DNA from: Amoebophrya sp. A120
Lineage: Eukaryota; Protista; Dinoflagellata
Assembly (NCBI GenBank): GCA_905178155.1
Contig: CAJINV010000011.1
Coordinates: forward strand, 705,982-769,981
Length of the DNA: 64,000 bases
Reading direction: 5' to 3'
Numbering within the stretch: the first letter of the stretch is position 1; the number at the start of each line of letters is the position of its first letter. Both the position numbers and the translations under genes were made by a program. A model generated the notes under the pieces. That model was not told the DNA's origin. It worked only from the letters and a program-made list of their open reading frames with translations, and ran no database searches. Shown here piece after piece: positions 270 through 58,720 of the stretch.

Positions 270-3200
270 TCCCCAGCGAGATGTTTTCCGAGAGCCGGTT
301 GGGGAAGTCACCGTTTTGCGTATCGTAAAGAAAAATGCCCCCACCCCCGAACTTGAAAGCATTTGTATTGCAAACCTTTCCAAATGAAACATTCGCCCTC
401 TTGCATGTATCAGCATCACAGATTTCCGATCGTGAATAGGAAAAATTTGTATTGCAAAAGATCGCAGCAAGAGCGGTGCTTGTCATGCAAGCAATGCGAA
501 ACACCACTAGAATCTGCATCAGAAAGATTCATATTCCTTTCATGCATGACAAAAGGTTTTCATTTGGAAACTTCGCATGACAAATTTTTGCAACTTTGGG
601 GGTGGGGGCTTTTCACTGTAATATTGCGTGCGGAAGTTTTTCCGAAACCGGTTCGAGGAGTTGGTCGGGGACATTAAAAGCACGGGCCGCGGGAGTTGTA
701 GGAACGATTTTTCTCCTACCACCAATGGTTGTAGTGGTACAACTAGAATTACCTCCGCTCTCTCCTTCTTGAAGCGCAGTATCTACGAGGCGCGGTTTGG
801 GAAACTGCAAAGAACTTCTGGGATGAAGAATTCGCTGGATAGAGTTAAGGAATTGCAGGAAAGGAGCAAATTCTTATCCCCACTGAGCGTCGTATTTCAA
901 CATGTCCCGGACGCCGACCGAAATGTCGCAGAAATAGAGGCGTATTGGAAAAAGTTGCACGGGCAGAAACAACGACAGCGAGCCTTGCAGCGGCTAAGAC
1001 GACTGTACGCGGCCGGGACGCTGAAAGTGAGAAAGAAAAAAGCTCGAAGTGCTAGTACTCTTGGGAAGATGAAACAAGTGAAGCTGCGAGGTGAAAAGCA
1101 CGAAATTGCCTCAGAAAAAGATGGCGAAGATGCGGGAGATAGAAACAGAAAAAGCAGTACTTGCTCTACCGCCGTCGTTGTCCCCGGCACGAACGTTGTG
1201 TTTGCGTATTTGCTCCTGGGACGAGGTCTACACCTGGAGGAAGATCCTCAACAGCGGAACGTCGTAGCAACAGGCAAAACCTCGAAAGTCGAAGCTGCCA
1301 CAGAGATAAAAGCATCGAAAGCTGCGGCGATAGATGCAAAAAGCAACTCCTCCTCGGAAGACGCTGCGGAAGTGCAAAAAGGTAGGACCGAAATGAGCAA
1401 GAATGCTACTTCTACCGGTGCCACAAAGACCATAAAGAACTCGACTCTGCTTCGCAACTCCGGTTGGTCCACGCTTCTGGACTACCACAGTTTTATTTTA
1501 CCCAGTGTGGAGGATGCACAGGTACAGGAGTCCCTCCAAGAAAGCAACTCGAAGAACGTTGCCGCGGCGTGGATCAAGAAGAACGCGCGGTCCTCATCAA
1601 TCCAGAAAGAAAACCAAGTCTTGGCCGAGCGAGCGTTTGCGAACCTTGTGGACCTTTCCTGGAACGAGAAGCAGCAAGCAGTGTTGGCAGGCTTGGCGAA
1701 GGTGCTCAGCGGGTATTTGCGGCCAATGCGGGAGATTTTTGGCAACTTCGCGGGAAGACGTAGACCAGGTTCCACCGCTAGTAGGTGTGCAATGGACCAC
1801 CACACCACTCATTCATCATCCGCGACAGAGCCGAATACAGAGGAAAATACGCCGTTCTCGTCGCGATTTCAGTTTGAAGATCCGGAAGTGAGCAAACAGT
1901 ACTGGTCGAAACGTTACCGGGACAACGCAAACGACCTCTTCGTCGTGACAGAAAATCAACGAAGCGGCACAACATCAGGAGCTGCGACTTCTGCTTGTTC
2001 CTTTGGAAGTAGTACTTGTACTACCAGTACGACAACCGAGACGGGGTGGGCAACATCAAGTGAACAAGATTTGCGGAAGCGCTTTAAGCCGAAAATATAT
2101 GACAGAGGCGTGGAAATCGAGGACGTGGACTTTGACATCTTGTTCCAACGGTATGATCGGGTCCGGGTGCTCCGGAGTGGAGAAGGAGAACAAACCGCGA
2201 AGTCTGGTGGTCTTCTATCTGATTCCGCCACAGATGTTGAGGCGAAGAAAGTAAACGAACCAACGGACCATGCAATGGAAGCTGATGCAGATCACAAGCA
2301 GGAGAGCATGGACAAAAATGTTTTCGATCACAAAGAACAAGAAACGGCGAAGGAGCTCCCGAAGATGGTAGAAAAAACCAGCAGAAAGACAAAGAATTAT
2401 GCCCCATCAAAAACCAAAACCACCGAGCAAATCCAGTATGAAATTCTACTGGTTCTCTCCTTGCTGAAGACCTTCTTCCTCGACCGCGTTAATTGGTTGA
2501 TGATTTCCGACGCGGAAAAATTAGAGCTGAAAAAGTTCGCGGTGTCGAATAGCATGCCAAATTTGATGATTGTCGTCGGTGGAACAACATCTTCAACGGG
2601 TCATGAAACAAGCAACAAGAACAGTCTTCCACCCGCTTTTCTCATCCCCCAGCACCTCCTGAGCCAGCTTTTCTTTTTCACCCGGGCCTGCGCGCAGGTG
2701 AAAGACTTCAGCTACGCCCCCTACGACCGCCAAGTACCGGACTCCTGGCGCCGGTGCTACCAGATGAGCGCCGATTTGAACGCGAAACTGCGGAAGGCAC
2801 TCGATCCCAGCCTGAGCTACAAGGAAGTGACCCTGGACCACGGCGGGGACGTTGCTGGGTACAGCTACTTCCTCCGGGGGGATAGTGTTTCGCTTGGGAA
2901 GAGGATGGAAATCCAGAACTTGAGTTTGAAAAAGGCGAAATTTTTGCTAGAGCAAGGGCAGCAGCAGCTACTGACGTCAAAAACCACGGGCGCGAACACG
3001 ACTACGAGTAAGACCGCCGCGTCTTCGAAGGATTCTACTTCCCACAAGCACCAAACGGCGGCCATCAAAAACGACCGCGGAAGATCGGTCTTCAAAAACG
3101 ACCGCGGAAGATCGGTCTTCAAAAACGACCGCGGAAGGTCGCGTTCCACTCGTAAAATGCTAGGGGTCCCCGTTACCTCGAATAGCATAGCTACTGCAGT

Positions 3201-9200: not shown

Positions 9201-12200
9201 AAACCCGACGACGACGTCAACCTTTCCGAACGGAGCGATAAGCAACGGCATAATTGATGCAAACTCTACTTCTAACGTTTGCCAGCAACAGTCCTCCTTT
9301 CCACAGCCTTCTGTTCTAAAACCTGCACCACCCGGTAGTAGTACTAGTTGTGCGGCACCAGTGTCCCTGCCACTGCTTGGTAGTACGTTTGGGACCACGA
9401 GCTCGTCGAAAATAGTAGTCCCGACTTCCTTTGTTCCACTTGTGCCGTGCGACAACGAGGGTGTTGATGCTATGATTATCCCGGAAAAGAACTACAGTTC
9501 TCTGTGTACTAGCAATTCTGATGTCCGATCTACGTCCCAACTCTCGCAGCTCATCACGCTGTTCAAACCGGACAACAAAACGAATTACATTGAGCAGCTG
9601 CTCGTGGAGGAGCTGCCGAGACTGATCGCGCAAATGAGCAGCGAAAAAATCATCGAGACCATTGTTGGCACCAGCTCGGCAAAGATTGCTGCAGAGAATC
9701 TTCAAGGTGCGAGCAAGAAGCGCACTGCATCAAAAGGGGCCCCCGCGAGGAAAAGCAAGAAGGACGACAAAATAGTAAGTAGACCGGTAGAACAAGAAGT
9801 AAACGGTGGCAGCACGACAGGGGTTCTTGGCAAGAAAAAGGACAACGTCAAACTGAAGAGCGGTGCTGTGCCCGCCGGATCGTCCTCTGCGCAGCCTCCC
9901 CCGTCTTTGAGCGCAATTCTGCCACGGTTGCAGGCACAGCAGAAGAAGGAAGAGAAAAAAATTTTAACCGCAGGAACAAGCGCTGGCGCAGCAGGAGCTG
10001 TAGTGCCGGGAGCTGCTACTGGCGGTGAGCAGGAGGACAAAAAAGTGGTAGATGGCCATGGCACCACAGCAGCAGGAAGAACCACAACTGCAGTCGAAGT
10101 AGACTTGATCAATGGGAAGAACATGAAAAACGACAAGGAAAATAAGAGCGACACGACAGCAACAGCAAATGTTTTTAAAACGAACAGCACCACTGTTGAA
10201 CATCAAGATCGTGAAGATTCTTCCAGCCATAAATCCCTTGTATCCCCCGCGGAGCAGAGAGAACAGGAAAAGCTGCGATTTCTTCAGCTACTCCCCCGGT
10301 TCTCCTCTGTGCAGTCGCGCACGAAGCGGCGCGGTCCCGCGGAGATCGGGTGGCGGCACTACCAGTGGGTGTTTCTGCACAACATCACGGAAAAGGGGTT
10401 GCGTAAAGAAATCATCTGGACCGCAAAATTCCACAAAACAGACCACCGGAATCCCCGGTCGGCCGGGGACCGGTGGAAGTTTCAGAAACTCTTCAAGTAC
10501 TGTACGGACGCGCAGATGAAACGGGAGGTGGAAAAGATGTATGCGAAAGAGAGCAGCCAGTTCCTGGACCGTTTTCCCCTGCCGGACGCCAACAACTTCA
10601 TGAAAATTTTCGAAGCCAACAAAACGGCCGACAAGGCAAGGAAGGCTACGTTAGAAAAGGACCACTGGGACGTGGAGAGGGACGAGCGGTCCCTGAAAAA
10701 ATACCTCGCGCAGAAGTCCTTGTTTCGGTCCCACAGCGGCAAAGAAGCGTTGGCCGACTTGCACGACGTGCTCGGTCACTACCGCGCCCAGGCCGTGGAC
10801 GAAAGTAAGCCAAGGGTTCTGAGGGCGCAGCTGGAGCAGGTAAAGAATTAAAACTTTTGTTGTTTACCAACGTACAAATGTAAATAAACGATGTAGAAGT
10901 TTTTGTGCACCATGTGAATCTATGGATGATGGGGCCTCGATCAAGAATTTAGTTTTACAATTTTTTCAACAATAAACAAAAAAAGGTCGACCACGCCACG
11001 GCGCTGTTCCAGCCGACGAAGTCGGACATCTACCCGCATTTAACCGACGCCATTCAGTCGAAAGACTGGAAAAGCGCTTTGATTTTTACCTTTGACCTCT
11101 TCCTCGGCGGCATGCTGCAGACCACCTGCGCAGGTACTTCGAAGTCGTCTTCTTCTTTTTCCCGCACATCATCATCTTCGCTGCAAAGCAGCTTCGACCG
11201 GTTGCTGGAGAATTGTGTTTTCATCCAGTTCAGTGCGAAAAAATATGTGGAGCAACAGGAGAAGCTGTTGCTGCGAGGACCAGTCGTGGCGAGGAACGCG
11301 ATGGCCGCTCCGATTCTTCCTTCCAAGAAGCCGCCAGCGCCGTTGGAAACCGTGTCTAAAGCGAGATCCATTTCCACCGCCGGAGCACAAGGTAGTAGTT
11401 CAGAGGATGCTAGTAGCTTGCACATTGCGAAAAGGCGCAAGGTGGACGAGGAACCGCATCAAGGGGGCCAACAGCCAGCGGGCCAACAGTTCATGTCCAG
11501 TACAACCTCATCGTCCACGATGTCGTCCTCTTTTTGGCCAACTACAACATTTCCCCCACCGTCCGTGCTTCCAACCACTACTTTTCAACAGCACACTCTC
11601 CCCTCGCTCGCCCCGACGTGCACGTTTTTGAAGGCCAGCACAAAGTCCAGAACGTGGCAGAAGTTGTGTTTCGCGCTGCGAAAAATGTTCGCGTTCGAGA
11701 AAGTGAACAAGTCCAAGGAAGCAGAAGAAATGGCGGACCACAACATGCAAGCGCCCGACGTGAAGAGTGCGGTGGAGCAAGTGCTCGTGAAAAAGCTAGA
11801 AAGTGTGAAGTTCTTGAAGAACAATGAAAATACTTCGGGTTTGTCTGGTAGTTCATCGGGAGCAGGACCGCGAAAGCAGAACTCTATCGCCGATCAGCTC
11901 CTCGTTCCGGCGGCGGTTGGGGGCCCCCAGACGTCCCAGCAGCTCCGGTCCTCGCGGCTTCTCCCACCCTTGTTGCGGAACGTCGACGTGCGGGACTTTG
12001 CCACGGTGCTGGAGTTCGCGAAGCACTTTGACGACATTCGGAAGCGGAAAGAGGCCGGGAATTTCTTGGACGAAACCAATCCTTTGGAGGTCGCCAGGAT
12101 GTTTCTGGACCGTTTGCCGACCTTCCAGGCGAACTTGTATCCTGAGCAAAAACGTCCCCACCCCAGAGTTGTCATGCAAAGGCGCAATGACATTGACAGG

Positions 12201-15200
12201 AACATTTGTAATGCGCAGCTTCATGAGAGGCATTTCCAATCGTGTTTTGGCATTTGTAATGCTGTAAACAGGATGAGAAAACGACTTTCTCATGCGGCTT
12301 TCCTTGCCAACCAGCACTACACTGCAGAGTGGGACTTGTCATGCACAGCTCCCAAAACTTGGAGATATGTGTTGCCAGATTCCCAGCTTGACTATGTGGT
12401 GGGGACGTTTTTGCTTAGGATAACGTGATTACCGACTTCATCTACATGCACTTTATGATCAACCCGGAGGTGGACGGGCGGCCGCCCACCAAATGTAACC
12501 TGATTCTCCCCGGGGCGGTGAGCATGGTTGAGTACGTGGTCTTGAACCACCCGCTCTGGCGGGTCGGGATGTGCCAACACTGGCAATGCGGAATGAGCCA
12601 CAGGTACTTGTTTTTACCCTGTCATCGTGGGCCTACATGCTAGAGCAGGTGATTTTCATACTTCACGGTTAGATGTGGTCCTCGTGTATCTATGGATAGA
12701 ACCTCTGCCTGCGTGTGATGTGATCATCATGCTAATAGGCGAAGAAAATGAATTTGCTTGCAGCGCAAACCATTAGTCATGTTGAAACAACTAGGTACGA
12801 CATGGGCACGGGTGGGCCGCTTCTTTGGCAGAAGACGTTTGCGGGGCGGGAGATCAACAGTTTAAACATCGAGTCCGCGCGGATGTCCAAGGACTACGTC
12901 TGCCTAGTGCACGGCTCCTTCTCGGAAGCCTGTGCGCGCGGTTGCATCACCTTCCCGCTGGACCAGTTGGCGGGCCGCGCTCTGCGCGTGACGAAGGGGG
13001 AAAACGGGAAAAAGGTGTGCCAGCTGCTGGACGAGATCAAACAGCTCCCCGGCGTGTCGAAAGACCGTACCGCGTACCCCTTTTACTGTTTCCAGAACAT
13101 GCAGGAAACCGCAGCGGTCCGCACCAAGGAAGACTACATCTGTTTGAAGTTTTGGATGATATGCATTGCACAAGCAAATCGTACTTAGTAAAAATTGCAT
13201 TACAAATAAAAAAATTGCATTAAAAATTGGCCCAGCATGACGAATTGAATTTGTAATGCGGATTTACCGTAAGAACTAGATTTGTAATGCGCGTCACTGC
13301 AAGTGCGATACTTTTGCAATGCATAGATGAAGAAACGCGGCGATTCGTCCATGGGTGAATACAATTCCGTGACGCACTACGAGGTGATTCAGCAGTTCGA
13401 GTACAAAAACCGGTATTACTCCCTGGTTCACTGCCGCATTCTTACCGGGCGCACCCACCAGATTCGCGCGCACATGCGGGCCATCGGCCACCCGCTCGTC
13501 CACGACCGGTGCTACGCCCTGCGCGGGGAGCAGGAGCGGCGCGGACCGCTCGCGGCGACCAACGGCATATGGTGTGTAAAAACGTTCCCAACTATGTACC
13601 CAGAGACAATAGGAGGATTTTGCAACACGACAAATCCAGAAGTTTTGGGAGCCTTCACACATGACAAGTTTCCATCTGTAGTTTAGTGTAGTGCGTCGGC
13701 CTAGCAAGGACAGCCGTGCATCACAAAGCCATCTGCTTATCCTGTTTAGAGAATTTGAAATTCCAAAACAGGACTGAGAAGGCCTCCTATCGGGATGCGC
13801 ATTCTTGCATATGTTCCTCTAGTAGATGCAAATCTGCATGACAACTCTGGGCGGGACTTGGGGATGTCTTTACACAGGATACGGCATCCGGAAAGCGGAA
13901 TTTGAGATGATGGACGTGAATCCGACGGGGGAAATCCACCTGTACAAGTACCGCAACAGTTTCTTGTCTATCGTAAGGAAAAACTCCACCGCCCCATATC
14001 GAAAAGAAAATTTGTGATGCTGATTTGTGGTCACAGATCAGCTTTGTCTTGCGTGCAAGGCAAACGGCACCCATGTGGCTCATTGTGCATCGAATCTGTC
14101 ATGCGTTGTCGCCTATGTCAGACTTGTTTCTGATGCTCAGGTGCTAGCCGGATCCGGATCCGTGCCCAAATTTGCCTAGCATATGCCGGCAAGCTCTTGC
14201 TGCAATACAAAGCGCATTTGTGTACACAAATCCAGCAACACAAATTGTCTTTTGCATATGGGGAGGGGGCTTTTTTCACTTTGATATTGTCCGGCACCTC
14301 CCGGTTCCAGTCGATCGAGTCCGAACCGCCCCAGAACTTCCGGGTCTTGCTCTCGAAGCTCAACCCTTTAACCCGGTTCGACTACCGAAGGATCGAGCAC
14401 TACGTGGAAAATCACTCGGAGAACTATGGCTTGCTCAGATGTTACAATCTCAAATCGGTTACCATAGAATCTGAAATTTGTCTTGCATAAACAGCACGAG
14501 TACCATACAGAGCCTTAGGCTTTTCGCAATAGAAATTTCGCCAGATAATTTTCATGAGCTTTGAAGCTCCGAAACTTGTCATGCGCGCTCCTGTGAGAGC
14601 AGGCCAGATGTTGCGCATTTTGCATCACAAATTCTAGATTCCATTGCAACGTTTATCAATTGAGATCGTAACACCTGAGCGGGTTATAAGAACCTTCCGC
14701 TCCTGGGCCGCGATCCGGAGAACATGCAACACCCGGACAGACGGTACTTATAGTGATGAACGTTGGTGGTCATGGTTTCATGTTCCTTAATATCAACATC
14801 GAAGTCCTCTGTTTCTGCAAAGCAATATAATCTTCAAAAGTACATTCATATACTAGGGAAAGCAGTCCGGCCCCTGGCCAGTATAGTTAAAGCAAAAAGT
14901 TACAGACTGAAGGCCGCGGAATTCGTGCGGCTAGCTAGAAAAACCGCGCGCTGTCGTTCGTTCGAAAAATAAAAAACTGCGCGCCAAGATTTTCGTCCAC
15001 ACGCTAAGTCAAAAAGTGCCGTCGGTGTCGTCCAACCGCGCTTCGGCGCCCAGCCCCATCCAAACGTTAAACCAGGGGCCCATCGGGAACGGGCCCCCAT
15101 CGGGTCGTGGCGCCCCCGCCTGGCCCGCGGCCGGTCCCTGCCGCCTGCCGGCCCGCCCGACCCGCGGCCGCCGCTCCCCCGCCCGCCATTCCCCTCCCCC

Positions 15201-18200
15201 GCCAGCTGCTGGCCCCTGTCGCCTGCCTGGCCGGCCCGCGGCCGCAGGGGGGGGGGCGCGGCCCCCCCCACTCCCCGCCCCCGGCAGCTGCCGCTCCCGG
15301 CCGCCTGCCTGCGTGCCCGCGGCGCCCGGCCCCCGGCCGCCGAGGAGGGGGCGCGGCCCCCGCCAGCTGCCGCTCCCTTCCGGCTGCGTGCCTGCCTGCC
15401 CGGCCGCAGGGGGGGGGCGCGGCCCCCCCCATTCCCCGCCCCCGCCCAGGGATCCGGAGAACATGCAACACCCGGACAGACGGTACTTATAGTGATAAAC
15501 GCTGGAGAGTTCACATGGTTTGTTGTTCCTCAGTATCGACATCGAAGTCTGTTTTTGCAAATCAACTACTTACAGAAGAGTTGTGAGAGCAGGCTGCCAG
15601 ATGTTGACTTTCAACCTTCTTACTTATGAAAACCACATTCGTTATCTTCATACCACCGTCCACAATATCCCCAGGTACTTTCTGAGCCTCGACAGGAGGA
15701 GAAGACTATCACACAGAAAAGAGCCGGCAGGTCACACTTGTAATGCAAAAATAAATACACAAAAAAATCTGTATTGCGTATCCCAAACAGCATGCTATGG
15801 GGCCGCCCATGAGAGATTCTTCTGTGTATTCATTTTTGCATTACAAATGTGCCCTGCCAGCTTTTTTCTCTGGGATAAAGACGTCGGTGCGGCTACTCTT
15901 CCAAGTACTTCGGCTTGCCAGAGGTTTTGCCCCCCGACGTGGAAATAAATGTTCCGTTGCAAGATGAGCAACAGCAACAAGGGAACAAATTTTTATCCGC
16001 CGGTGCGCCGAAGATCAAAAAGCAATCGCTGATGAAATCTATGCAAGAAAAAAACTGTTTAAGTGTGAATCTGTGATGCAGGAAATGAAAAATAGTTACA
16101 CTTGTCATGCTGGAAGCGCGTCATGGGCTACTATTCTACGCGTTTCCACGTACTAGCAGCTCATGACAGGTTTTCCCTGTAATGCAAAACGAATTTGTGA
16201 CGCTGCTCTTCCTACAAACTTACACTTACACAGTTTTTTTCCTGGATAAAATCCACGATGGGAGTACTAGCCGAAGCTTCTACCGGGGCTCCACCCACCT
16301 CCACCGGCATGATCGGGTCAGAAGTAGCGACGAAGGTTGCAGAACAGGACGAGAAGAACGTCACTGGTGTTGTCGAGTTTTCATGCAAGAACGAGAAGGC
16401 GATGCAACTAAATCAAGGCAAGAGCAACCCACTTTGCCTGCTCCCGGCGCACGAAGTGCTTGGGAAGGAGGAAGATCATCCGATCTTACAAGTACAGGAT
16501 CCGCGGGGCGGACCGAACGAGCCAGCGAAGAGAAGGAGAGTGGAAGGGCAGACGAACAAAGGCAGGACCACAGACGAGGCAGCGAGTCCACCCGCCTCTA
16601 CTTTGAAGGTGCCGGTGCTTCCGCCGCCGGCACCAGCGCGGAAGAGGAAAGAAGCGCATTTGCAACGGGATAATAGACAAGGCATTAAACAAGAAGCTGA
16701 GTCCACCAATCTACTTGCACCTCCACACGACGTTGTACTAAAAGAAGCACCGTGTAGTACAAAGGAAAATCGAGGGGAGAAAGAACTTGTGCTGCGGGCA
16801 GAGCGCCGTCCTCGACCTGTTGTGCAGGAGAACAAAACTACCGGAGTAGAAGTTGACAAGATGAAGTATCCTCAGAGCGACGACGAGGAAGATCTCCGCA
16901 GTAGTAGAGCTGCCTCCGTCTCGTCTTCGCGCCGATCATCGCCACGCCGCCCACTGGTTCATCGCAATGGTTCCAAGAACTACAGTCCCCGCGAGGAGCA
17001 GGACGCCGGAAGTGAGGGCGGTGCGAAGAAGGACGAAGAGAGGGTGTCGTCGACAGGGAAGAAGATGGTGGCGGGAATAACGCAGGATCGGGATGATCAT
17101 GATCCAGTGTTGAAGCAAACGAAGAAGTTTCGCTTGCCAGTCATTGGCTTGTTGGATACGGATGTTGGCCAAGTACAACACGATAAACAGGATGTTCGGA
17201 ACAAGAGAAGCAAGGAGCGACCGGTATTTGTGAACAAGAGCACGAAAAGTCCAGAGCGCGGCCGGGACGTCGAGAATCTTCACACTACCACCACGATGAG
17301 CAAGTTGTCTCCAGCTGCTGTGGCTGTTTCCTTGTCCGAAAAGCAAGAGGAGGAAGTCCAAGTCGTGCACCAAGATGTTGAACTCCGACCGGCTACAAGA
17401 ACTTCTTCCCTGGTCGAACAAAATAAGATGAAAGACGCCGACGGAGCACAAACTCCGGGAAGCGGTGACTACAGAAGTGAAAGGGTTGGTTCGGAATTGT
17501 CCCGGGGAGGTTTTCGTCCGGATGAAGAACAAATGGGCGACCGAGATGATAATCGGGGACGTTCGAAGGTGCGAACAAATTCGAAGGTGCGTGGGCACCA
17601 TTCGAAGGAACGAGCTGCTTTTCCAACTTACAAGGACCACAGCCGGGAGAAGATGCGGCGTGAAGAGAGTCGCAAGCGGGTGGTGGTTCAAGACGAGGTA
17701 AAAGAAGTACGGAGGCAGCCATCGAAAGTTCGGGATGACCGGGAGAAGCCGCGGCAGCACGACGGCAATGTTGATAAACAGGATCTACCTGTTGTTCCTA
17801 GAGAACCACGACCGGAATTAAAACGGGATGGAAACAAGAAGCGCGAGTCGAACATGAATTCCGGCAATGATCTTCGTGCCCCCGGGCGAAGAAGTGCCAG
17901 TCTTTCCCGCGGAAGCCAGAAGAGGTCAAAATCGCGGTCTATTCCGCGCCCGAGGTCCTCGCCGTCCATTCCCCGCAAGAGGTCGAGGTCGCGGTCCATT
18001 CCGCGCCCAAGATCGCCGTCCATTCCCCGGCCTGGCGGGTTTCGTGCGACCGGCCGGGAACCGTCGAAGGTGCGCGCGCCGTCGCAGGCGCGACAAGGCG
18101 TGCATCTCGGGGGAGAAGAGAACACAAAAAGAGCACTGCAAAATGTCAAAACCCCAACAAAAAGCTGCTCTCCACCCCGCCTCAGATTGCGGCTGGACAA

Positions 18201-34575: not shown

Positions 34576-34649
34576 AGCTAGAGGAAACGTTACGGATTGC
34601 AGTTTTTTAAAGCAGAAAGACGCGCGAACGTTTCTTACTGGGTATTTGG

Positions 34650-45060: not shown

Positions 45061-48000
45061 ATGCGCAAAAATCGCAATTCGATTGGCGCGGGGAAGCCCC
45101 TGCTGCTCCTTCTTTTTGCAGGCAGCTGCAGCACTACAACCAGTTTGGGGCGCGAAACTGTGTCTACTTCTTCCGCGAGGAATGCTGATGCTGATGAAAG
45201 AACCCCGGACGAAATGAAGGCCGGCGTGGGCCTGCATGACACGCCTTCCTCGGTGCCGCGACGTACGCATCATAGTGCTTTGCGCGGAGGGCTTCACCGA
45301 GCTGGTGCTGGTTTGACGGATCAGGAAATAACATCTGCAGGCAATCCGGGAGGTGTGGCGAATGGTGGTGCAATTAGAATTGTGCCAGCAACCTTTTCCA
45401 TCTCCGAATCAGGGGAGCACGAGCAGGACAAGAATTGGCGGAGCACCGCAGCCGACGCTCGTGTTGCTACTTTTCCATCAGTAGAGCTTGGCTCCTTGTC
45501 CTCCACCGCGTTTCTGGAAGATCACAAGACGGCCGCGGGTGCGGACATCGAACAAGCCGCGGTGCGGGACGGGGCGGATCATCCAATTGCGAGCGAGGAC
45601 GCACACGCAGTGGACGAGATGGACGAGGAAAGGTTGGTGAGCAGCAGCCCGCACGAAGAAGAGCATGTCGAAATTATGGCGCATCCCGCACAAGATGCAG
45701 CCGTTCGACCGGCAGGGCAGGAGCAAACAGGTGCTGATGAACAAGTGGGAGGTAAGTACGAAAAGAAAAATTTGGAGGCAAACATTTTTTTTTGCACCAC
45801 ATGGCCAGTCTGCTGATCGCACCATGATGTGGTTACCATTTGATATAATGTCGGCTGCATTTATTATTCATGGAATTGACAGTCGAGAGATTTTTGCGCT
45901 TGATTTGCCTCTTGTTACAACAGGTGATGGAGAGGGAACAAGCGGGAAAAACATAAACACGACCGACAGCGGAGCAATCCCAATCGCGATCGCAGGAGAA
46001 CGAGAACCGAAAGCCTCCGCACAACAGCAACAAGCGCTGGATAAAAATCTTCTTCCCGATGTAGAACAACCCGTGTCGACCACAGCAGCTTCCCTGGTTG
46101 AACAGATGGGGCGCATGGAGGCGCGGTTTCAAAAATTGGAGTGGGAGCACGAAGCCGAGATCGCACGACGGAAGAAGGCGGAAGCGGTCGAGGCGCAGTA
46201 CCGGAAAATGACGGATTCCCGGTTCTACAATGTGCGGAACGTGGACGTAACGAGCGAGTTTTATCCACTGCAAATATGTCTGGGTCTGGAAGAGTCGGGG
46301 TTTGTCATGCACGTTTTGCATGATCCGTGAGATTAGTGATGCAGGTCCTAGCATCACAGATTTTTTGAGAGCTTCTTGATGCGTATCACGCATGAGAAAT
46401 GCTCTACTCTCCGCGTGCCAGGAACTGGACTCCTCTTGTTGCTCATGCAACACAGATGTTTTTAGAATTCGCAGACAGCATTACAAGTTCCACTCATCCA
46501 GACCCAGACATTTTTGCAATGCATAAGTTTATGGTGCAGACCATGTTTGGCCACGAGATCGACCTGATCCAGCAGGTATGAATTGCAAATATGTCTGGGT
46601 TTGGAAGAATACAAACTTGTGATGCGCATTTCAGAAGACAGAAAAATCTCTCATGCATTGGTAGCAAAAGGCGCCTGCTTTCTGTCACCAAAGTGGGGGA
46701 CTTGTCATGCGGATTCGGCATTGCGGAAGCTTCTCGAAACCTGTGATGCTGGAGCTTCCATGCCAGACCTTCTGTGTCATGCAAAAACAGCACGGCTCTT
46801 CCAGATCCAGACATTTTTACATTTGATAGCAGGATTTCACCATCGCGCTCGTGTTTCTCTCCGTCGGGTACCTGGCCGTGCTCATCGGGATTTGTCTCCC
46901 CATAAGTCTGGTGTTTAACCCGACGCGCGTGTACCACGAGGCCGGTGGGGGCTTTGTGAAAATGGACGACAGTAGCACGGATGAACATCTTCAAGACGAG
47001 GGTCTTCACCATTTCACTGCGGGACAAGAAAATGAAGCAGGTGGCACTACGCCGGCGGCGAATGAGGTGGAAGAACATTTGTACTACCTCCTGCCGTACG
47101 ACTTTGTCTTGCAAGGAACCTTGTCCTCGATCACGCAAGTGCACGGGTCGGCCGAGGGGAAAATTTGGACGGCCTGCTTGGTGGTGTATTCGGTGATGGC
47201 GATTTTCAGCCGATACACTTTCAAGGTGCACCAAACCTGGTTATAGCGGGCACAGAATCTTATTTTTTCGATAATTAAAAAGAAAAAAACGTTCAAGGTA
47301 TTTTTTAGGCTTAAACGCCTTGCTACGCTATGCAAAACCTAGTTAGTTTTCTATCGAGGAGCAACAAGGTAGGTATGTTTAACTAGCTAAAGAGAAGTCC
47401 ACCGACGGCATAGGCGGAGATGCAGCTCTGCGGATTCGCCCGAATCCGCGCAGCAACAGGTCGCGGAAGCTGGCGCGGGGACTTCTCTTTAGCTAGTTAA
47501 CTAACTACCAAGATTGCTCCTTCTTTTGTGATAGAAAAACATAATCTGTAATGCATGTACACAAGCTGCGGCAAAAAATATCTTGAACGTTTTTTTTTTA
47601 ATTTCTGAAAAAATAAGATTCTGTGCCCGCTATACTGGTGCACCGCCAGTGACAACGTGTACGAAAGCCGGAATGACCAGCTGGCCTTCGCCATGGGGTT
47701 ACCCGACTCGGAGGCGCCGTTGCGGGTGCTGCTGCGCATGCTCTGGCTGCTGGTGCCGAACTTCTGTCTGATTCTGGTCGCGGCCGCCCCCTCCACGACC
47801 TACGACCACGACGACGAGGAGGATCTTGCCTTGGATCGCGCAACAGCCCAGTCCACCAAAACCGGTAGTTCCACCTCGAACGCTATCAACTGTAAAAATG
47901 TCTGGGTCTGGAAACTTGTGATGCTAAAATGTCCATGATGAAAACACTTCCGAATACAGTCCGGCATGACAACTTCCCATATCGCTTTCTCATAGGCAAT

Positions 48001-50062
48001 CCGCATGAGAGGCTGCGTTTTTGCATCACAAAAGAGGCTGCGGCTTTTGTTGGTTATGCAATACAGAATTTCTAGGTATGGAAAGCTAGCATTACAAGTT
48101 CCAACCTTCCAGACCCAGACATTTTTACAATCCATAAACGCAGAAAAGACGCAGCACGCACAGAAGTCGCACAAAACACGGACCCAAAAATATCACAGTG
48201 AAAAATGCCCCCCACCCCTGAAATTGCAACAATTTGTGATGCGAAGTTTCCAAATGAAAGCTTTTTGTCATGCATGAAAGGAGTAAGAATCTCTCTGATG
48301 CAGATTCTAGTCGTGTTTCGCATCGCTTGCATGACAAGCACCGCTCTTGCTGGGATCTTTTGCAATACAAATTTTTGCTATTCACGATCGGAAATCTGTG
48401 ATGCTGATACACGCAAGAGGGCGAATGTTTCATTTGGAAAGATTTGCAATACAAATGCTTTCAAGTAGTTCGGGGGTGGGGGCATTTTTCATTGTAATAA
48501 AAAATGGTTGATCTTCATGCACCGCGCGGCCGCCCCGATTGCGATCCTGGCCATCGTCTTCTTTGAGAGCTACCAATTGTGCATCGGCGAGGGCATCGAC
48601 ATCGGCGCGGCCCTGTTCGGGTTCTCGACGGAGAGGCAGGAAGAATTGCGTTTGCAATTCTACTTCCAGTTTTTCGTCTGCGGACCCGCCGATCTGCGTC
48701 TGTTCCACCACCCAAAGTACTACTTTGCGCGAGGCCTCTGGCTGGTTTTCTCCTGGGTTTTCGCTGCTGGCTTTCTGGGGTTGGCGGTCACACTCAAATT
48801 CAAGTCAGACCGCGCGAAAAAAGAAGCACGTCGCGTCAAGCTATTAGCGAGCAACAGTGGCTTAGACCAGGACGGCGTAGAGAAGTCGGAAGGGCTGGAA
48901 GAGCCGCAAGTCTTGGATTCTATCAAGCGCAGATATCTATCTGGGTCTGGTGAAAAAGTCGAAATTTGTCACGCAGCTTACGCATGACCTCCCAGAGCAG
49001 AAGATCTGGCGTGCGGCTTTGGCATCAGAAGTTTTGATATTAAGGGTCCTCAATTCTTACTCCGCGTGAGAAATGTTACCTTCTGGTATCACCAGAATTT
49101 TTGGGCGCTTTTGCTGGTCATGCAATCTTCAATACAGACTTTTGTCGTGTCGATGATCAGGCCTAGCGTGACTCTTCCAGTAGACCCAGACCACATATTT
49201 GCAATGAATAAATCCCAAGTCCTTCGGACCTTTGGTGCGACGTGCGGGAACCAACCTGTGGCTGCCGCGGACGGTTTTCGTGTTTGAGCTGCTCTGCATG
49301 CTGTTTTCCTTTTCGTTGCCCTTTGTCGCGTCCGTCCGGCCCATGCTGGATGACAGACGCATTGCCGAGGATTGGCGTTCGTCCGCTTTCGAGCTCCGAT
49401 CCCTGTTCGTCCCAACGGCCACGAAAGTGAGCAAAATGTACTGGTACTATTGGGCGGGGCGCCTACCGCCCTGTGGTTTTTACTCCGATTACATTACGCC
49501 GGAACGCATCGATATCAAATGTAAAAATGTCTGGGTCTGGAAGAATGGAACTTCTCATGGTAAATCTGAAGCATGCAAAAATCTGTGTTGCATGATTACC
49601 AAAAGTCGTCCAGTTTTGACCAAGTCGGGAGGGAGTTTCTCATGCAGGATAGGCATGAGAGAGATTGCGCGGAATCTGTCATGCTAGGTCCTGCATTCCA
49701 GGCTTCATGGGTCATTGAAAAGCTGCATGACAAATCGCGCATTCTTCCAGACCCAGACATTTTTACATTTGATAATCGACCCTGCAGTTTGCGATGAGCA
49801 TCTGGAGTGGTTCAAGGAGCCGAGTGACGAAGCGGGCCGGGAAATACGACGGAGAGGGGAGGAGAATTTGATCAATGGGGCTGACGAGCATAATCTGCTG
49901 AAAGAGGAAATAAATCGGTTTCAGCAGCTCAACCAATCTGTAGATGTAGAAGCACGAGCGGGGCCTTTGGGAGCGAGTGTGGTCGGGGAGGTGGGAGATG
50001 AGGCTGGAGGAACGAGTCCAGCGACCGCGGCGCAGGACGCCGTAGTCCTGGTGGAACAGTAG
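45061..50062 (+). CDS. Signal-peptide-bearing multi-pass membrane protein, possibly Frag1/DRAM/Sfk1-like
   Basis: Frame restored by GT-AG intron 45752-45923 and removal of seven TIR elements. About six hydrophobic segments with LSSI...AEGKIW, MHRAAAPIAIL and FVFELL motifs reminiscent of Frag1/DRAM; family call tentative. Confidence 0.6.
46262..46525. mobile_element. Introner family A
   Basis: Family A TIR, TSD agttt; reverse orientation relative to the 23299 copy. Confidence 0.9.
46577..46828. mobile_element. Introner family A
   Basis: Family A TIR, TSD gcagg; exact removal possible as GT-AG intron 46576-46832. Confidence 0.92.
47242..47634. mobile_element. Introner (393 bp, long TIR)
   Basis: ~60-bp TIR tatagcgggcacagaatcttatttttt, TSD ctggt; removal gives QTWCTAS. 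Confidence 0.9.
47884..48136. mobile_element. Introner family A
   Basis: Family A TIR, TSD aacgc. Confidence 0.9.
48191..48499. mobile_element. Introner family C
   Basis: Family C TIR, TSD aaaaa; removal gives TQKWLIF. Confidence 0.9.
48921..49210. mobile_element. Degenerate introner family A
   Basis: Decayed TIR (tctgggtct / agacccaga), TSD gattc/aatcc (3/5); removal restores frame. Confidence 0.7.
49513..49774. mobile_element. Introner family A
   Basis: Family A TIR, TSD atcga. Confidence 0.92.
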
Positions 50063-50886
50063 AAGAAGCAGATGAGTAGCGAAAAACCTTGTACCGTGGT
50101 ACGAAAAAGGATAAACAACACATTTTGGATTTCAGCTTTATTGTAGTTTACCCGAGGAATAATGTAATGTATGAAGTAGATGAAGACGAAAATTCGAAAA
50201 AGTAGAGCAGTTTCAAATACCGATCGCAGGCTTGGTCGCACGTTCTTGCTCGTGATTTGTAAATAATGCAGTGACAAGAAGAAGAAGTTGAATGGCAGTT
50301 GCAATAAAATTTAACCGAGAGCGTGCGTGCATACATTCCAGTTGAAATTTTGATTAGGCTCACAGCTGGTGTAGAAGAGGAGTTTATTCCAGCCGTAGAT
50401 CTTTCAGCAGGGTAAAGAAAAAATGAACACATCACGGCGACAGAGTTGTTCGTTGCGCGTCTGTATCACGTAAAGATGTCATTCGTAGCGGAATTTTTCT
50501 GGATGAAACTCCTGAGTGACGGAGACTTGTCCGGACTCGTTTCCGCCTGATGGGTCGCGAGCGCATTCGTATCTATTCGTATTCGAGAGAGGAGCGAAAG
50601 CGACTCTGCTTTGTCCTCTTTTCCCTGCTGGTAGCTGTCCACCTGCTCGTTTCAAGAAGCTAGATAGAAGTAAAGCAGCGCGTAGTTGCTTTACCTGTCC
50701 GAATTCAAGATCGATTGACCAAGAAGAGCGAATGGAAAAAGTATGATTAAGTCGGACGAGCAAAGAACTACTTCTACGTGTTGCCGACTAGTACCGAGGA
50801 CCTTTGGAGGTGTCTGTCGCGACAGTTGTACAGCACTTTGCAAAGAAGAATAAGATTTTTGCGAAAAAGAACACTACAGAAACAGA

Positions 50887-53800: not shown

Positions 53801-56800
53801 CCCGAGGAGGAGTTGGTTCCTCGTCGCGGCCGGGGTCCGCGCCAGCACACAGAATCATGATCGGGTCCTCGTCTTCATCGCAGCTACACTCGGCTAGCAA
53901 GATTTCCCTCTTCTCCAACCGCGGCATGACAAGCCGTTCGAAGGGCAGGGTGTACGTGCCCCGACCTAAATATGACCACGTGAAGTCCCGCCTGTACCAG
54001 CCGACCGCGGCGTTTCTGTCCATGGAGGCGCAGAACAAGGGCTATCAATTAGTGCCGAAACAGGAGAAACGGAAAACCAGAGAGCAGATTCTGTTGGACA
54101 AGCTCCCAAGTAAGACGCACCACGACAAGAGCTTTTCCGAGACGAATGGGCTGCTGAAGCAGTGGAAAGGCGTGAATCCGGTGATCGACGAGATTCTGAA
54201 CAAAGACTCCTTCTACCCGCGCACGAACCAATCCAGATCTCCCTCGCCCCGCATGCTGCTGGAAGTCGGGCCGCCGCCCCTCAACGGCGGGAAAATAGCG
54301 AACGGGGGTCAACAGCAGGGGAGCGCCAACAAGTTCAGCACCCGACCGAGAAGGAAGCGACCAGTTTTGGGTGGTGGTGCGCAAAACAACAACTACAACG
54401 CGGCGATGATGACCCAGAAATTACCCCTGCCGGCGCAAGAACTACCAGCTCCGTTCGCCCAGCGATTGCCCGCTGCAGGAGCCGACGAACTCGACACCGC
54501 GCAACCGAGTCCCGCCACCACGATTGTCAGCGTGGCGACGCCTGATTTCGTTGCGGCACCGAAACCGATCTTTCCACAGAGTGTTGCTGAAGAACAGGCT
54601 GTTTCTGTGCAACAAGAGGATGTTAAAAAAGCAGTTATCCCGCTCGACCAGGACAAGTCCTCCTCTTCCGATGACGAGGAAACGAATGCGCAACAACTGG
54701 AGCTAAACCCGATGGCGAGCGACACCGCCTCCCTCCGCCTCGCGATCAAAAAGTTGAAGTTGTGGAAAAAATTGTCCAAAGCGACGATAGGAGGGACATA
54801 CACCTTGAAACAGGACGTTGAGAAACCGTTATTCCCCTTCTTCCTCCGCACTTTGCGTGCGTTGCACAATTTACAAAACTCTTCCTTCAACACCCGGATG
54901 CTGTCCGAAGCGGAATTAGGGTCAAAATCCGAACAGGAAAACTTCGCCGAGGGGGTGCTCGCGACTATCGCATTGTTTCAAAACTGGGGGAGTTCTGTAC
55001 GGAAGACGTTACTGCCCAGTTCGACACAACTCGTCACGGGGGAGAACCTGCCGGAGCCGCGGACGCGGCGGGCGCTGATGGCGTTATTGTGCATCGCGGA
55101 CATGGAATCGGTGGTGGAGATGTTCTTTCCACACAACGAGGACACTAACGGGAGTTCCGTTCCTAGTGGTAGTCGTGACTTGTCCGAAGCCAAAATCCTA
55201 AATCCCTCGCAGCAGATCAAGCGGGCCTGTTACGAGCTGTTCTACGAACTAGACTACGACGCGGCGAAGAGTTTGCTGAGGGTGGAGGAAAGCGAGAAAA
55301 TCAATTCAACAGTTTTCTGGCTCGGTGTCGACGCGGTGCTGCAACTGAACCACGTGGAGTCTTCCTCATCCGCTGTGGCGTATGACAGAGAGTGGATGCT
55401 TTTGCTCGTCCGCGCACACTGTGAGAAGATGGAGGTGGGGAGAATCCGGGAGTTGTTTCAGATTTCCTCTTCTAGAGAACAAGCAGCAGCTCTCGCGGAT
55501 CAAAAGCAGCATTCTGGTCCGTCAATCCATTCTTTGTCCAGTGCCTCGTTGGAGCAGGTGAGCTCCCCGGTGCCGATTTTCGCCGCGGAGGGAAAGAAGG
55601 TGCCGAGTTCCGTGGTGTCGGTTGTGGAGTCAGAGGTTATTGTCGTGTCTGGCTCAGCGGGCGGGACAAACACGGGCACGGAAAGCGAGGAGCAACTGTG
55701 GGGGAACATCAAATTGGCGAACAAAGATAAAAATATCGTTGCAGCTCCGGTAAAACAGCCCAGCCCCGCAGACAGTGAGCAGAGCTTCGAAACCAGGGCG
55801 AAGACGTTTGGGGAACAGAAGGGCGTTGTTGGGTCGGTGCAGAGAGAAGAGGACTTGCATGACCACGACGGTGATTTTGACAAAAAAAGCAATTACGAGG
55901 AGGACGCGTTTGAAACGGCGTCGAACGGGGAGCAAAATGATAAAGTAGAAGCCTTCAGCGAACCTCCGGGAACATCATCGAGTAAGAACAGTGCGGACCA
56001 CTTGAAGATACTACGGCCAGAACCAAGTACTCTTCAAAACGAGTCAGAAGATCCAAAACGACCCGGCGAGGAAGCAGAAGCAGATGAACCCGTATCCGAA
56101 CAAAATTTCCCCATGTTTCACTCCGACACGGATCGCGGTACCATATCTTCGAAAAATTCCAGCAAAGAAACGCCACTGGTGAACCTTTTGCAACCTCCAG
56201 GAGCTGCTGCGCCACTTTCTCAGCAAGAAGACGATGACGAGCCGGACATTGTGGCCACCAACTTCGACGCGGATGAATCACTGATGCGGACGGAGGGCGG
56301 CAAAGCGTTTTCCTCTTCAAACGCCCCGTCCTCTGTGGAAGAGGAGCCACAAGCCGCAGCGGAGTATCCGGGGACTGCGGAGGAGGAGGCGGTGGAAACA
56401 AAGCCGGTTGTAGTTCAACATCAAGTCGCTCCTGTACAACAACAACCGCAAAAAATCAAAGAAGTGTTTTCCGACGCTGGGTCGAGTAACCTCCCCGGGT
56501 TTAAAAGCTCCTCGGCGAGAAGTGAAAATGATGAAAACGATAACGATGATGTTGAAAGAGGAGGAAGCCAAACGAAAACCGGCTCCCCCGGTGCAAATTT
56601 CCTGAACATGCTGAACACCGCCGGAGAACAAGAAGAGACCACGCAAAATACACATCAGTACACAAATAAAGCGGATGACCCGGAAAAAGACAACTTCGAA
56701 ACATTGGGGTCGCAGTTTGGACGAGCGCACGAGGATATGGATTGTAAAAATGTCTGGGTCTGGAAGAATGCAACTTGTCATGCTAAATCTGAATCATGTA

Positions 56801-58720
56801 AAAATCTGTGCTGCATGATTACCAAAAGCTGTCCACTTTTGACCTAGTCGAGAGGCAGTTTCTCATGCAGGGTAGGCATGATAGATAGATCTCTCACGGA
56901 ATCTGTCATGCTCTGTCCTACATGCCAGACCTCAGGGGTCATGGAAAATATGCATGACAAACCCGGCATTATTCCAGACCCAGACATTTTTGCATTTGAT
57001 AGAGGAGAGCAAGCGATCGTCTGGTAGGTCCGGATCCTACGACGAAGACGATTTTCACAGCGACGCGCTGCCGCTACCAGGTGGGTCTTCGGAACAGGAG
57101 GAAGCCTCGGAAGAAAAACCAGCATCGGCAGGTGCGGCAGAGGAAGAAGCTGCAGCTCCGAGGGGGGAGGTACAGTTGATGTAGGGTTTTTTTATTCTAT
57201 TTACGGCACCGTCGCTGACTCGTAACGCTTTCGCTTTCCGAGTTTTATTTGGGTTTGTCCGAATAAATATCTGTACCTCTTCGTCGCAAACGCAAACGCC
57301 AATGCTTTCTGTTTGTTCTGCATGCACAATCAGCTTGGAGCAACATGGCCTGTAAAATTATCAGGTTGAAGTCCGGGGCAGTATGCAAGTTCCAGAAGAC
57401 GAGCAATCCGCGTCCGCCAGTAAGGAGAGCGTGAGCAGCAGCCTGTTTGGCCCGTCGTCTTCCGAAGCTGCTGGGGTTGAGCGGTTTGACCAGAATACTA
57501 CCCAAGGACAACAAGAAGGTGGAACACCAGCACCAGAGGAGCAACGCGAGACGAGTCCAACACGAGCAGAATCTACTTCACAGAATGACCCTTCGTCGAC
57601 AACATCATTGAACGAAGCGTTCATCCCGTCGCTAGAGTTGTCCCCCCAAGCAGCGCTTCGGGAGATCATGAACTCCTCCGCGATTCAGTCGTCCCTAAAA
57701 ATCAACTACTTGTCCGAGTGGAAAAACCGGAAAAGCAGTGTGACAGAGGAAGAAACGTTAAGGCCGAGAGAGAATTCTATTTATTCGGAGGATACAGGAC
57801 CAGCGCCACTCGTGCGACCGCCAACTTTTGCTTCCTCTTCTTCCAATGTTAACACTGGGGAGGGCATGATGAACACTACCGCCACACCAAGCACAAGCCT
57901 CCCGATCGGCGGGCTCGGGCCCTACCAATCCGCAGCGCCAGCAAACACAGTGTACCCCCAGATGATGATGATGAACAATAATTCTGCTGACAACAATTTT
58001 TCCGCGAAAGCCGCCGCCCCCCAGCAGCCCACGGTCCGCCCTCTAATCCCGCCTGCGGCGGACGCTGCGCAGAAACCTGGTTCCCCCTTTTCCAACATCC
58101 GGAGCCTCGTGCCCCCGCCCGCCGTGCCGAAACTCCCCAACGAACTGCCCTCCATGTTGTCCGACGACGAGGAGGCCGGGGTTTACGAGGACGATTTCGG
58201 CAGCGATGAGGACCACGACGGTGGCCAGTTTTCCGAGGAGGAACACTTCAAGGAGCCGCCACTGCAGTCGTCGGATTCTACTCTCGGCCTGAACTCGTAC
58301 GGGTCGTCGGATGTGGGCTCCGGGACAGTGTTTGGGAGTAAAAGAACGGTCCTGCTCAATGAGGAAGAAGAGCATGATCCCTTCGCGGGGCCGGTGGGTG
58401 GGAAGAGCGTCATGTTTCCGACTGGCGGAGGGGGTAGTACTGCTGGGGGTCGTGGTAGCAGTTCGTCCTCGAGAGGCACTACAGGTGCGCCGGGTAGGGG
58501 TAAGAACTTTGCCAACGCAGGCGGTGCAGCACTTCCTGCTTCCAGGTCCTTGTTGCAGAACATCGAGGACACCGAGAGCGACGGGTCCTCCTCCGCGGGC
58601 ATCGATATCGACACGTCATTGGAGAGCATTGAGAACATCATTAAGGAGGCGAGGAAAAAGCGCGCCGGGGGTGGCGGCGGCGGGGAGAAGGAAGACGAGG
58701 AAGGGGTGACGCTACAGTAA
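50887..58720 (+). CDS. Large (~2,450 aa) low-complexity/coiled-coil protein with two UVR-like motifs
   Basis: ORF 50887 continues through TIR element 56736-57001 and GT-AG intron 57170-57364 into ORF 57383-58720. KLEREKQFFVQNEQFEPAL and LLQMIEQERYQTCIRLK resemble UVR coiled-coil motifs. Confidence 0.7.
56736..57001. mobile_element. Introner family A
   Basis: Family A TIR, TSD gagga; removal gives AHEESKR. Confidence 0.92.

Follow-up and report, generated by a model that had tools for sequence, protein, structure and literature searches.

We analyzed a window of 64,000 nucleotides from contig CAJINV010000011.1 of Amoebophrya sp. A120. A scan for TAT or TGT ends, an inverted repeat, and flanking 5-mers recovered the 29 TAT...ATA elements of 166–393 bp (one with an ACA end) that the initial annotation had described between positions 321 and 57001 (Table 1; elements are named by their first position). 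Read inward, 57 of the 58 ends begin with TAT and one begins with TGT (31225, which terminates in ACA). A 5-bp target site duplication (TSD) had been claimed for all 29; we found it to be perfect for 26 of them and imperfect for 12138, 32108, and 48921. A strict scan gave 26 matches in the window, as compared to none in 19 of 20 resampled windows and one in the remaining one. The first reading had missed an incomplete 30th copy at the start of the window and a 994-bp element with TAC...GTA ends (the TAC element).

Table 1. Features of the window. X1 is a transcript-like assembly and X5 is a DNA-like run.
Feature	Position	Strand	Basis and remarks
Partial 30th TAT...ATA element, 321/48191 family	1..270		90% identical to both; ATA end near 270
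Introner, TSD TTGCG	321..623		Scan; 95% to 48191, opposite orientation
Host gene, pseudouridine synthase domain	10953..25245	+	X1 record 2 (6936 nt); PF00849
Introner, imperfect TSD ACTTG/ACGTG	12138..12422		Left base 3 kept; X1 piece ends 12135
Introner, TSD GATGA	13160..13325		5' edge at 13154 in X1; spanned by X5 contig
Introner, TSD CGGCA, 12138 family, opposite orientation	13568..13881		Bin depth 7.71 predicted = observed
Introner, TSD TTGTC	13969..14286		Scan
Introner, TSD AGAAC	14425..14688		Scan; bin depth 1.76 predicted = observed
Introner, TSD AAGAC	15707..15877		Scan; contig arithmetic
Introner, TSD AAATC	16040..16248		3' edge at 16249
Introner, weak inverted repeat, TSD AAGCA	18515..18783		5' edge at 18509; folding z -0.6
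38-bp direct repeat, left copy	18917..18954	+	37/38 identical to 19949-19986
994-bp TAC...GTA element, ~52-bp inverted repeat	18955..19948		46/52 complementary; 999 nt gone from contig
38-bp direct repeat, right copy	19949..19986	+	33 nt remain in contig; encodes an 11-residue tandem repeat
Introner, TSD GGGCG	20001..20262		3' edge at 20263
Introner, TSD AGCTG	22411..22720		Scan
Introner, TSD ACTAC	23034..23244		Scan
Introner, TSD CTGCA, opposite orientation to 20001	23299..23560		Scan; equal-length shifted GT-AG present
Introner, TSD CGTAA	23618..23823		3' edge at 23824
Introner, TSD CTGGA	28606..28927		Scan
Introner, TSD CTTTG	28977..29255		Scan
Introner, TSD GAAGA	30521..30799		94% to 28977
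Introner, TSD CGAGC	30856..31134		Inverted relative to 28977 and 30521, same gene
Introner ending ACA, TSD TTGCA	31225..31491		Scan
Introner, imperfect TSD GTTCG/GCTCG	32108..32377		Scan
Introner, FKBP-type isomerase gene, TSD GTTTG	33671..33921		Scan; domain match
Introner, TSD AGTTT	46262..46525		Scan
Introner, TSD GCAGG	46577..46828		Sole exact GT-AG among 29, at register 4
Introner, TSD CTGGT	47242..47634		Scan
Introner, TSD AACGC	47884..48136		Scan
Introner, TSD AAAAA	48191..48499		Scan
Introner, imperfect TSD GATTC/AATCC	48921..49210		Scan
Introner, TSD ATCGA	49513..49774		Scan
Introner, TSD GAGGA	56736..57001		Scan

By their interiors, the 29 elements form 16 single-linkage groups (sizes 9, 5, and 2, plus 13 singletons). 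All 29 share the same layout at their ends: TAT is followed by seven less conserved bases and then, at positions 11–15, by an A tract (A in 43–56 of the 58 ends at these positions). The elements are multicopy in the genome, as the summed X5 depth in element bins is far above the flank depth, and many copies are young (relatives are 94–95% alike). When compared to shuffled sequences, 28 of the elements fold with z of -3.8 or lower; the exception is 18515, whose ends hardly pair and whose inverted repeat is weak, yet it is absent from the X1 contig. The longest stop-free stretch inside the elements is 95 codons, none of the TAT or TAC elements in the window was found to carry a transposase, and a plasmid search with element 20001 gave no match. 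Given that the families have the same type of ends, a 5-bp duplication, and an internal motif, TGT(C/G)ATGC, in common, a single mobilizer for all of them is a plausible candidate.

Every one of the 29 elements lies in a plus-strand open reading frame that opens once the element and one copy of the duplication are removed, so our check bears out the coding location and frame restoration that were originally reported. If retained, 27 of the elements introduce an in-frame stop and the other two shift the frame: retention of any of them breaks its gene. The host gene with the pseudouridine synthase domain contains 13 TAT elements, the TAC element, and three GT-AG introns, and its modeled transcript is open over 2093 codons. 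Nine long ORF pieces were compared to Pfam, and no domain was found in any of the nine; a protein search likewise gave no match. For the exon at 62820–63245, the best named match is from Amoebophrya sp. A25 (72%), while named core dinoflagellates are at 48–54%. The ordinary introns annotated in the window start with GTA in 16 of 16 cases (GTAY in 13).

The X1 contig that carries this gene covers 13 of the 29 elements (32108 and 44000–57500 are outside the read coverage), and its net loss at these 13 fits the element plus 5 nt each. X1 was classed as RNA by an automatic guess and by the absence of GT-AG introns. Removal is deduced from lengths and depth arithmetic on this one contig, with the junction sequence itself unseen (the joints are swamped by repeat copies). 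Three of the four gaps in the contig, with 11 elements, equal the summed elements with 5 nt each plus one GT-AG intron, with a residual of 0. The ends of contig pieces coincide with six element edges. Modeled and observed depth are equal in seven of the ten bins examined and observed depth is above the prediction in the other three; in the clean bins, depth inside the elements is zero. The raw RNA runs X9 and X10 gave only partial repeat matches to the window. Two pairs of opposite-orientation relatives (12138/13568 and 20001/23299) are inside the covered gene, and removal acts on copies of one family in both orientations. The ends, the direct repeats, and the absence from the contig at non-canonical sites (13 of 29) support the original identification of these elements as Amoebophrya-type non-canonical introners. 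Ribosome hopping was dropped as an explanation, as the elements are missing from the contig itself.

In X5, by contrast, contigs span 13160, 13568, and 18515 and enter elements by 24–86 nt at eight further edges, at a depth of 42–45, like the flanks. (X5 is a single DNA-like run of unspecified life stage, and contigs drop rare forms.) Because the elements are retained in this run, removal is most likely on the RNA level, and the precise DNA excision that had been suggested, similar to that of the internal eliminated sequences (IESs) of ciliates, is disfavored.

What signal would such removal use? The claim that only 46577 permits exact removal with GT-AG was correct: the other 28 elements cannot be removed in this way, which departs from the GT/GC-AG ends of U2 introns. 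Registers with AT-AG, GG-AG, GA-AG, or AT-AC are available in six further elements. G is the last base of the duplication in 8 of 29 elements, as originally counted, and the first base in 8 of 29 left copies, rather than 7. For 18 of the 29 elements, cryptic GT..AG pairs that preserve the frame are found nearby; besides the exact site at 46577, they keep the exact length only at 23299 and 49513, and the shifted pair at 23299 offers an alternative site. We found no branch point or U-rich acceptor tract in common with ordinary introns, and an A at -5 that might resemble a branch point showed no enrichment (10/16, p = 0.10). The idea that ordinary introns pair their own ends was also rejected (mean duplex -7.13 versus -7.22 permuted, p = 0.55, 16 introns).

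Perfect direct repeats mask the true cut site from RNA-seq, while mismatched or overlong duplications expose it, and two such copies in the window agree on a narrow register. The fourth gap in the X1 contig leaves a residual of 999 nt, or 994 + 5, on the assumption that 18515 and 20001 are removed exactly. If the TAC element were removed along with 38 nt, then the contig would be 6903 nt instead of the observed 6936 nt; the 38-bp repeat was not collapsed (999 nt removed, not 1032). Bin depth at this element is 5.72, which is the value for registers 3–4 (5.72) rather than for registers 0–2 (5.62), register 5 (5.79), or a chance GT-AG intron (2.58); a chance 999-nt GT-AG intron at 18858–19856 was rejected on this basis. 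No two-intron GTA..YAG solution for the 999-nt loss exists. A 993-nt GT-AG intron would agree with this depth as well, provided that the 5' edge of 20001, which was not seen, had lost a further 6 nt. At 12138, the third base of the left copy is retained, and the X1 piece ends at 12135, rather than at 12131 as expected if the right copy were kept.

From these two elements we infer that the left duplication is cut behind its third or fourth base (registers 3 and 4 are not separable) and, by analogy with the host's GTA donors, probably behind the fourth. At register 4, there are GT donors for 8 and AG acceptors for 3 of the 29 elements; this register gives a GTAC donor for the TAC element and the exact GT-AG of 46577. 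An N-TAY donor, which is near-canonical, is present at one register and was overlooked by the initial annotation. Because the contig loses the TAC element plus 5 nt and not plus 38, and mismatches between the two copies of a duplication do not prevent removal, the proposed guidance by the direct repeat is not supported. These two elements on one contig suggest instead that the cut is set by a fixed distance from the element ends. The proposed guidance by a hairpin of the terminal inverted repeats (TIRs) is partly weakened, as 18515 is removed despite its poor folding and the stem may not be strictly needed.

Our preferred explanation, with a probability of roughly 0.55, is that a relaxed spliceosome removes the elements from pre-mRNA by cutting a set number of nucleotides away from the terminal repeat. 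Short inverted-repeat insertions in coding sequence would stay in the DNA and leave from the pre-mRNA, and the position of the cut would depend on the terminal repeat and not on a match between the flanks. The intron would begin with N-T-A-Y, which resembles the host's GTA donors except at +1, and would finish 4 nt beyond the terminal RTA, with no fixed acceptor dinucleotide. As the signal would sit within the terminal inverted repeat, it would operate in both orientations, and removal of the element plus 5 nt would exactly cancel the 5-bp duplication. The elements probably spread by means of a putative transposase of the retroviral-integrase type (Ginger or IS3EU-like) acting in trans. Nearly all spliceosomal proteins, and not the U1 snRNA, were reported for Amoebophrya (Farhat 2021, PMC7789003), and the top nine non-canonical classes given for A120 in Table S4 of that paper all have T at +2. 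These classes may reflect aligner convention. The same study calls the placement of splice sites with respect to the hairpin variable, and it did not find a transposase in A120. On the other side, GT donors and AG acceptors are few at register 4, a difficulty for a spliceosome, and a stem would hide donor positions +2 to +4; given the weak pairing of 18515's ends, the stem is not clearly the landmark. A specific rule is more tentative, at a little under even odds: A120 splicing might read a terminal TAY...RTA, ignore GT-AG and flank homology, and cut 1 nt before and 4 nt after the element in either orientation.

Removal from RNA at the same offsets might instead be due to a spliceosome-independent nuclease and ligase that recognize where the terminal stem begins. 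Such a route has been proposed for the nonconventional introns of euglenids, which are released in circular form. We consider this to be possible if somewhat doubtful. It would account for the absent acceptor consensus, the scarcity of G at +1 (8 of 29), the orientation independence, and the strong folding of 28 of the 29 elements; the undetected U1 snRNA (PMC7789003) and the euglenid precedent, as outlined in PMC11282704, also fit. However, the allowed register reproduces positions +2 to +4 of the host donor, 46577 and the TAC element gain GT donors at that register, 18515 hardly folds and is still removed, and the Fritillaria precedent outlined in the same source is spliceosomal. Steering by homology between the direct repeats, as first suggested, is improbable. 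Although 26 of the 29 duplications are perfect and removal regains the pre-insertion sequence, the 38-bp repeat is uncollapsed, the 5-mers at the cut of the TAC element match at only 3 of 5 positions, and the youth of the copies explains perfect duplications without selection. (Because many copies are young, selection on duplication identity is not demonstrable.)

It is very improbable that the junctions are template-switch artefacts of reverse transcriptase at hairpins with direct repeats, with the genes handled in some other way. A hairpin with a flanking direct repeat and no canonical site is among the hallmarks of this artefact that are given in PMC10275267, and the RNA evidence is from cDNA-derived contigs. 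But all 13 covered elements are absent from one unbroken contig, without internal depth in the clean bins; every ORF would be disrupted if the elements were kept; 18515 is gone as well, despite its weak folding; and use of the 38-bp homology and retention of the right copy at 12138 would be expected, and neither was seen. We give equally little credence to precise DNA excision at some life stage. Ciliate IESs are short TA-bounded transposon relics in coding sequence that are removed scar-free, and the TA-type ends and scar-free removal here resemble them; also, a single DNA-like run whose contigs drop rare forms might miss excised copies. Yet X5 contigs retain the elements at flank-like depth, the TAC element leaves 33 extra nt and so is not removed precisely, and Amoebophrya is not known to have a separate germline nucleus, without which excision would purge the elements.

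If the fixed distance holds, it would explain why random transposon insertion into exons is nearly harmless: insertions by a transposase that makes 5-bp duplications and has such ends would be ready-made introns, and longer in-frame duplications would write tandem repeats into proteins. If the test of mismatched or overlong duplications were applied to the genome and RNA data already available, it could establish the rule for splice sites across the genome and distinguish between the spliceosomal, nuclease-ligase, and artefact models. The 2021 paper and a 2024 review both called the removal route of the tens of thousands of Amoebophrya introners open.

The element class itself is already known, because introners with the same TAT-N7-AAA ends were published for A120 in 2021. 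Those introners (Farhat et al. 2021, PMC7789003; Gozashti et al. 2025, PMC12130899) have the same TAT, seven looser bases, and A tract, 3–5-nt direct repeats, many families, and RNA-seq-supported non-canonical introns, and the family lengths that are listed (160–165, 208–209, 252–261, 278–279, 304–305, and 314–322 bp) match lengths in the window. Nothing distinguishes our elements from them, as likened by description and lengths rather than by consensus sequence; we found no fixed cut register, orientation test, or long-duplication case in either paper. As outlined in PMC11282704, the non-canonical introns of Fritillaria borealis are MITE-derived, share the TIR and TSD, and use an adapted U2 spliceosome, with AG-AC and AG-AT dominating, whereas our elements show no preference for an acceptor dinucleotide. 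Euglenid nonconventional introns, from the same outline, share the terminal pairing, TSD-like repeats, and non-canonical junctions; their junctions follow a pyrimidine|purine consensus, and the excised introns are circular. Unlike ciliate IESs, which are similar as TA-bounded relics in coding sequence, these elements are retained in the DNA-like run and are flanked by 5-bp duplications. Among transposons, Ginger2/Tdd and IS3EU/GingerRoot (PMC2836005, PMC10045372) have TIRs with integrase-type ends like those of our elements; TDD-4/5 make 5-bp TSDs, and IS3EU/GingerRoot have TA..TA ends. An entry in the published A120 supplement annotates family 38 as "Ginger, 5-bp TSD, TA/TA termini." Ginger ends are TGTNR, while TGT is at just 1 of 58 ends here, and its 4–5-bp TSD agrees with the 5 bp that we see; IS3EU/GingerRoot TSDs are usually 6 bp, as compared to 5 bp in all 26 perfect cases, and their TA..TA termini fit.

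We scanned the window for inverted-repeat elements with flanking 5-mers and identified 29 elements of 166-393 bp, which make up 12% of the sequence and sort into 16 groups by interior similarity. Read inward, 57 of the 58 element ends show TAT, and positions 11-15 are an A tract. A strict scan found 26 elements in the window versus none in 19 of 20 resampled windows. The initial annotation gave every element a 5-bp target site duplication (TSD). This duplication is perfect at 26 of the 29, with one mismatch each at elements 12138 and 32108 and two at 48921 (elements are named by their left coordinates). The list of 29 was also incomplete, as it overlooked a 994-bp TAC...GTA element with a 38-bp direct repeat (the TAC element). 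As had been claimed, excising each element with one copy of the duplication restores the reading frame: long plus-strand ORFs open up (e.g., 1747 codons over six elements and 787 codons over seven), while retention introduces a stop in 27 of 29 cases and a frameshift in two. Element 46577 is indeed the only one that GT-AG sites could remove exactly.

To ask where removal happens, four runs were compared with window positions 10500-30499; the RNA evidence covers 13 of the 29 elements, and the other 16 lie outside usable coverage. Run X1 has a 6936-nt contig that spans 11399-25245, and six element edges coincide with the ends of the listed X1 pieces. In three of the four gaps (11 elements), the length lost is exactly the sum of the elements, 5 nt more per element, and one GT-AG intron (residual 0). 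Because these GT-AG introns are absent from the contig, X1 behaves as spliced RNA (its type is otherwise an automated guess). A model with full removal, which leaves out bins swamped by contigs of other copies, matches X1 depth in 7 of the 10 bins examined, and the modelled transcript stays open for 2093 codons. In the other three bins, depth is above the prediction, which we ascribe to contigs of other copies. The DNA-like run X5 retains one GT-AG intron, spans three elements, and continues into the element at eight other edges with a depth like that of the flanks. The joints recovered are all repeat-to-repeat and all from X5; removal in X1 is read from lengths and depth. Since X1 lacks both the elements and the GT-AG introns while X5 retains elements and one GT-AG intron, removal most likely acts on RNA. 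Of the two routes originally proposed, RNA-level removal is thus supported by the X1 contig, whose lengths fit loss of element plus 5 nt rather than retention in transcripts, and excision from DNA is disfavored by X5.

What sets the cut? The fourth X1 gap leaves 999 nt over and contains the TAC element (46 of 52 terminal bases complementary; flanking 38-bp repeats 37/38 identical). If the direct repeat guided removal, as had been suggested, then 1032 nt would be lost and the contig would be 6903 nt. The observed length requires loss of 994 + 5 nt, so that the protein carries a tandem repeat of 11 residues. In bin 18504-19170, the observed depth is 5.72, as modelled for cutting behind base 3 or base 4 of the flanking 5-mer; bases 0-2 would give 5.62 and base 5 would give 5.79. 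At 12138, the X1 piece ends at 12135, versus 12131 if the left third base were lost, so this base of the left copy is kept. By length and depth arithmetic on two elements in one contig, a cut after duplication base 3 or 4 fits. A chance GT-AG intron at the fourth gap was rejected (modelled depth of 2.58 in the same bin). The bin depth is also compatible with a 993-nt GT-AG intron in place of element plus 5 nt, provided that the 5' edge of element 20001, which is unseen in X1, lost another 6 nt. The missing elements might instead be artefacts of template switching, whose hallmarks they carry (PMC10275267, accessible part), but both the 994 + 5 nt lost at the TAC element and the third base kept at 12138 argue against this.

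All 16 annotated ordinary introns (12604-63842; picked by eye, with frames checked in three genes) begin with GTA, 13 of them with GTAY, and end with YAG. These introns have T-rich 5' ends (41%) and A-rich 3' ends (43%) without a pyrimidine tract, and the following exon begins with GT in 9 of 16 cases. With a cut after base 4 of the left duplication, introners begin with N-TAT, the TAC element begins with GTAC, and 46577 becomes an exact GT-AG intron; the acceptors have no consensus (AG in 3 of 29). In the accessible part of Farhat et al. 2021 (PMC7789003), every one of the top nine non-canonical classes of A120 is NT-NN and every top A25 class is TT-NN, which may be a product of aligner convention. 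Relatives in opposite orientations sit in one spliced gene; because both orientations are removed, the signal should be symmetric and is likely located in the terminal repeat. The proposed guidance by a hairpin agrees with the good folding of 28 of 29 elements but not with 18515, which folds poorly (z = -0.6) and is nevertheless removed in X1, so the terminal sequence may be more important than the stem.

As to the machinery, a relaxed spliceosome would excise the introners from pre-mRNA. We favor this putative activity (probability roughly 0.55) because nearly all spliceosomal proteins were found in Amoebophrya while U1 snRNA was undetected (Farhat et al. 2021, PMC7789003, accessible part). 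Removal by a separate, putative nuclease-ligase seems less likely; the accessible part of PMC11282704 holds precedents for both.

Other features of the window, with their behavior in the X1 contig where applicable
Feature	Position	Details
Intron with insertion between duplicated exon/intron segments	14712-15496	offset 739; X1 jumps from first donor to last acceptor
Intron with insertion between duplicated exon/intron segments	20944-22410	offset about 1135; X1 jumps from first donor to last acceptor
Intron with insertion between duplicated exon/intron segments	39234-40711	offset 1422; perfect 56-bp repeat, 19-bp tandem array
TAC element with flanking repeats	18917-19986	CA/TG microsatellites inside the element
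RRM-protein gene	37440-41705	seven modelled GT-AG introns, zero TAT introners
Very long low-complexity ORF	622-10848	3409 codons; zero Pfam matches
Very long low-complexity ORF	50854-56844	1997 codons; zero Pfam matches
GC-rich intergenic block	about 34900-36450	without clear terminal repeats
GC-rich intergenic block	about 59200-61250	without clear terminal repeats; 27-nt imperfect direct repeat on both sides

For one exon of the window, the best named relative comes from Amoebophrya sp. A25 (72%). In the accessible part of Farhat et al. 2021 (PMC7789003), A120 introners (29,850 copies) have ends with TAT, seven looser bases, and at least three A, along with 3-5-nt direct repeats. Gozashti et al. 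2025 (PMC12130899, Dataset S2, among 40 of the 58 A120 rows) includes families with matching lengths, and A120 family 38 is labelled Ginger with a 5-bp TSD and TA/TA termini. Because end pattern, repeats, and family lengths match by description, the elements belong to a known, published class, and the source strain is probably A120. They also give a lead, open to testing, on how such elements are removed. The fixed-offset rule, the orientation test, and the long-duplication case were not found in the accessible parts of the non-subscription literature, including PMC7789003, PMC12130899, and PMC12787238; Figures 3 and S19-S25 of PMC7789003 (repeat positions around splice sites) may bear on these.

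All families share their ends and the 5-bp duplication. The motif TGT(C/G)ATGC recurs among them, with 64 copies in 7,786 element bases versus 9 in the remaining 56,214; a cut-off copy at 1-270 accounts for four of these nine. Its position is often 32-45 nt inward of the element end. Two ordinary introns, near 40765 and near 63802, carry a single copy apiece. Spanning otherwise unrelated families, it is a candidate site for a transposase or a splicing factor. Given these common features, one putative kind of transposase fits all families; Farhat et al. 2021 looked for an A120 transposase and found none (PMC7789003, accessible part). The closest transposon groups are of the integrase type, and none is a full fit. 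According to the accessible parts of these sources, TDD-4/5 have 5-bp TSDs, as at the window elements (PMC2836005), and IS3EU/GingerRoot share the TA..TA ends, but their TSDs are mostly 6 bp instead of 5 bp (PMC10045372). The TSDs of IS481EU-type elements fall into distinct size classes (about 4, 15, and 25 bp; PMC10045372, accessible part), and by analogy, we speculate that the 38-bp duplication might be the product of a long stagger.
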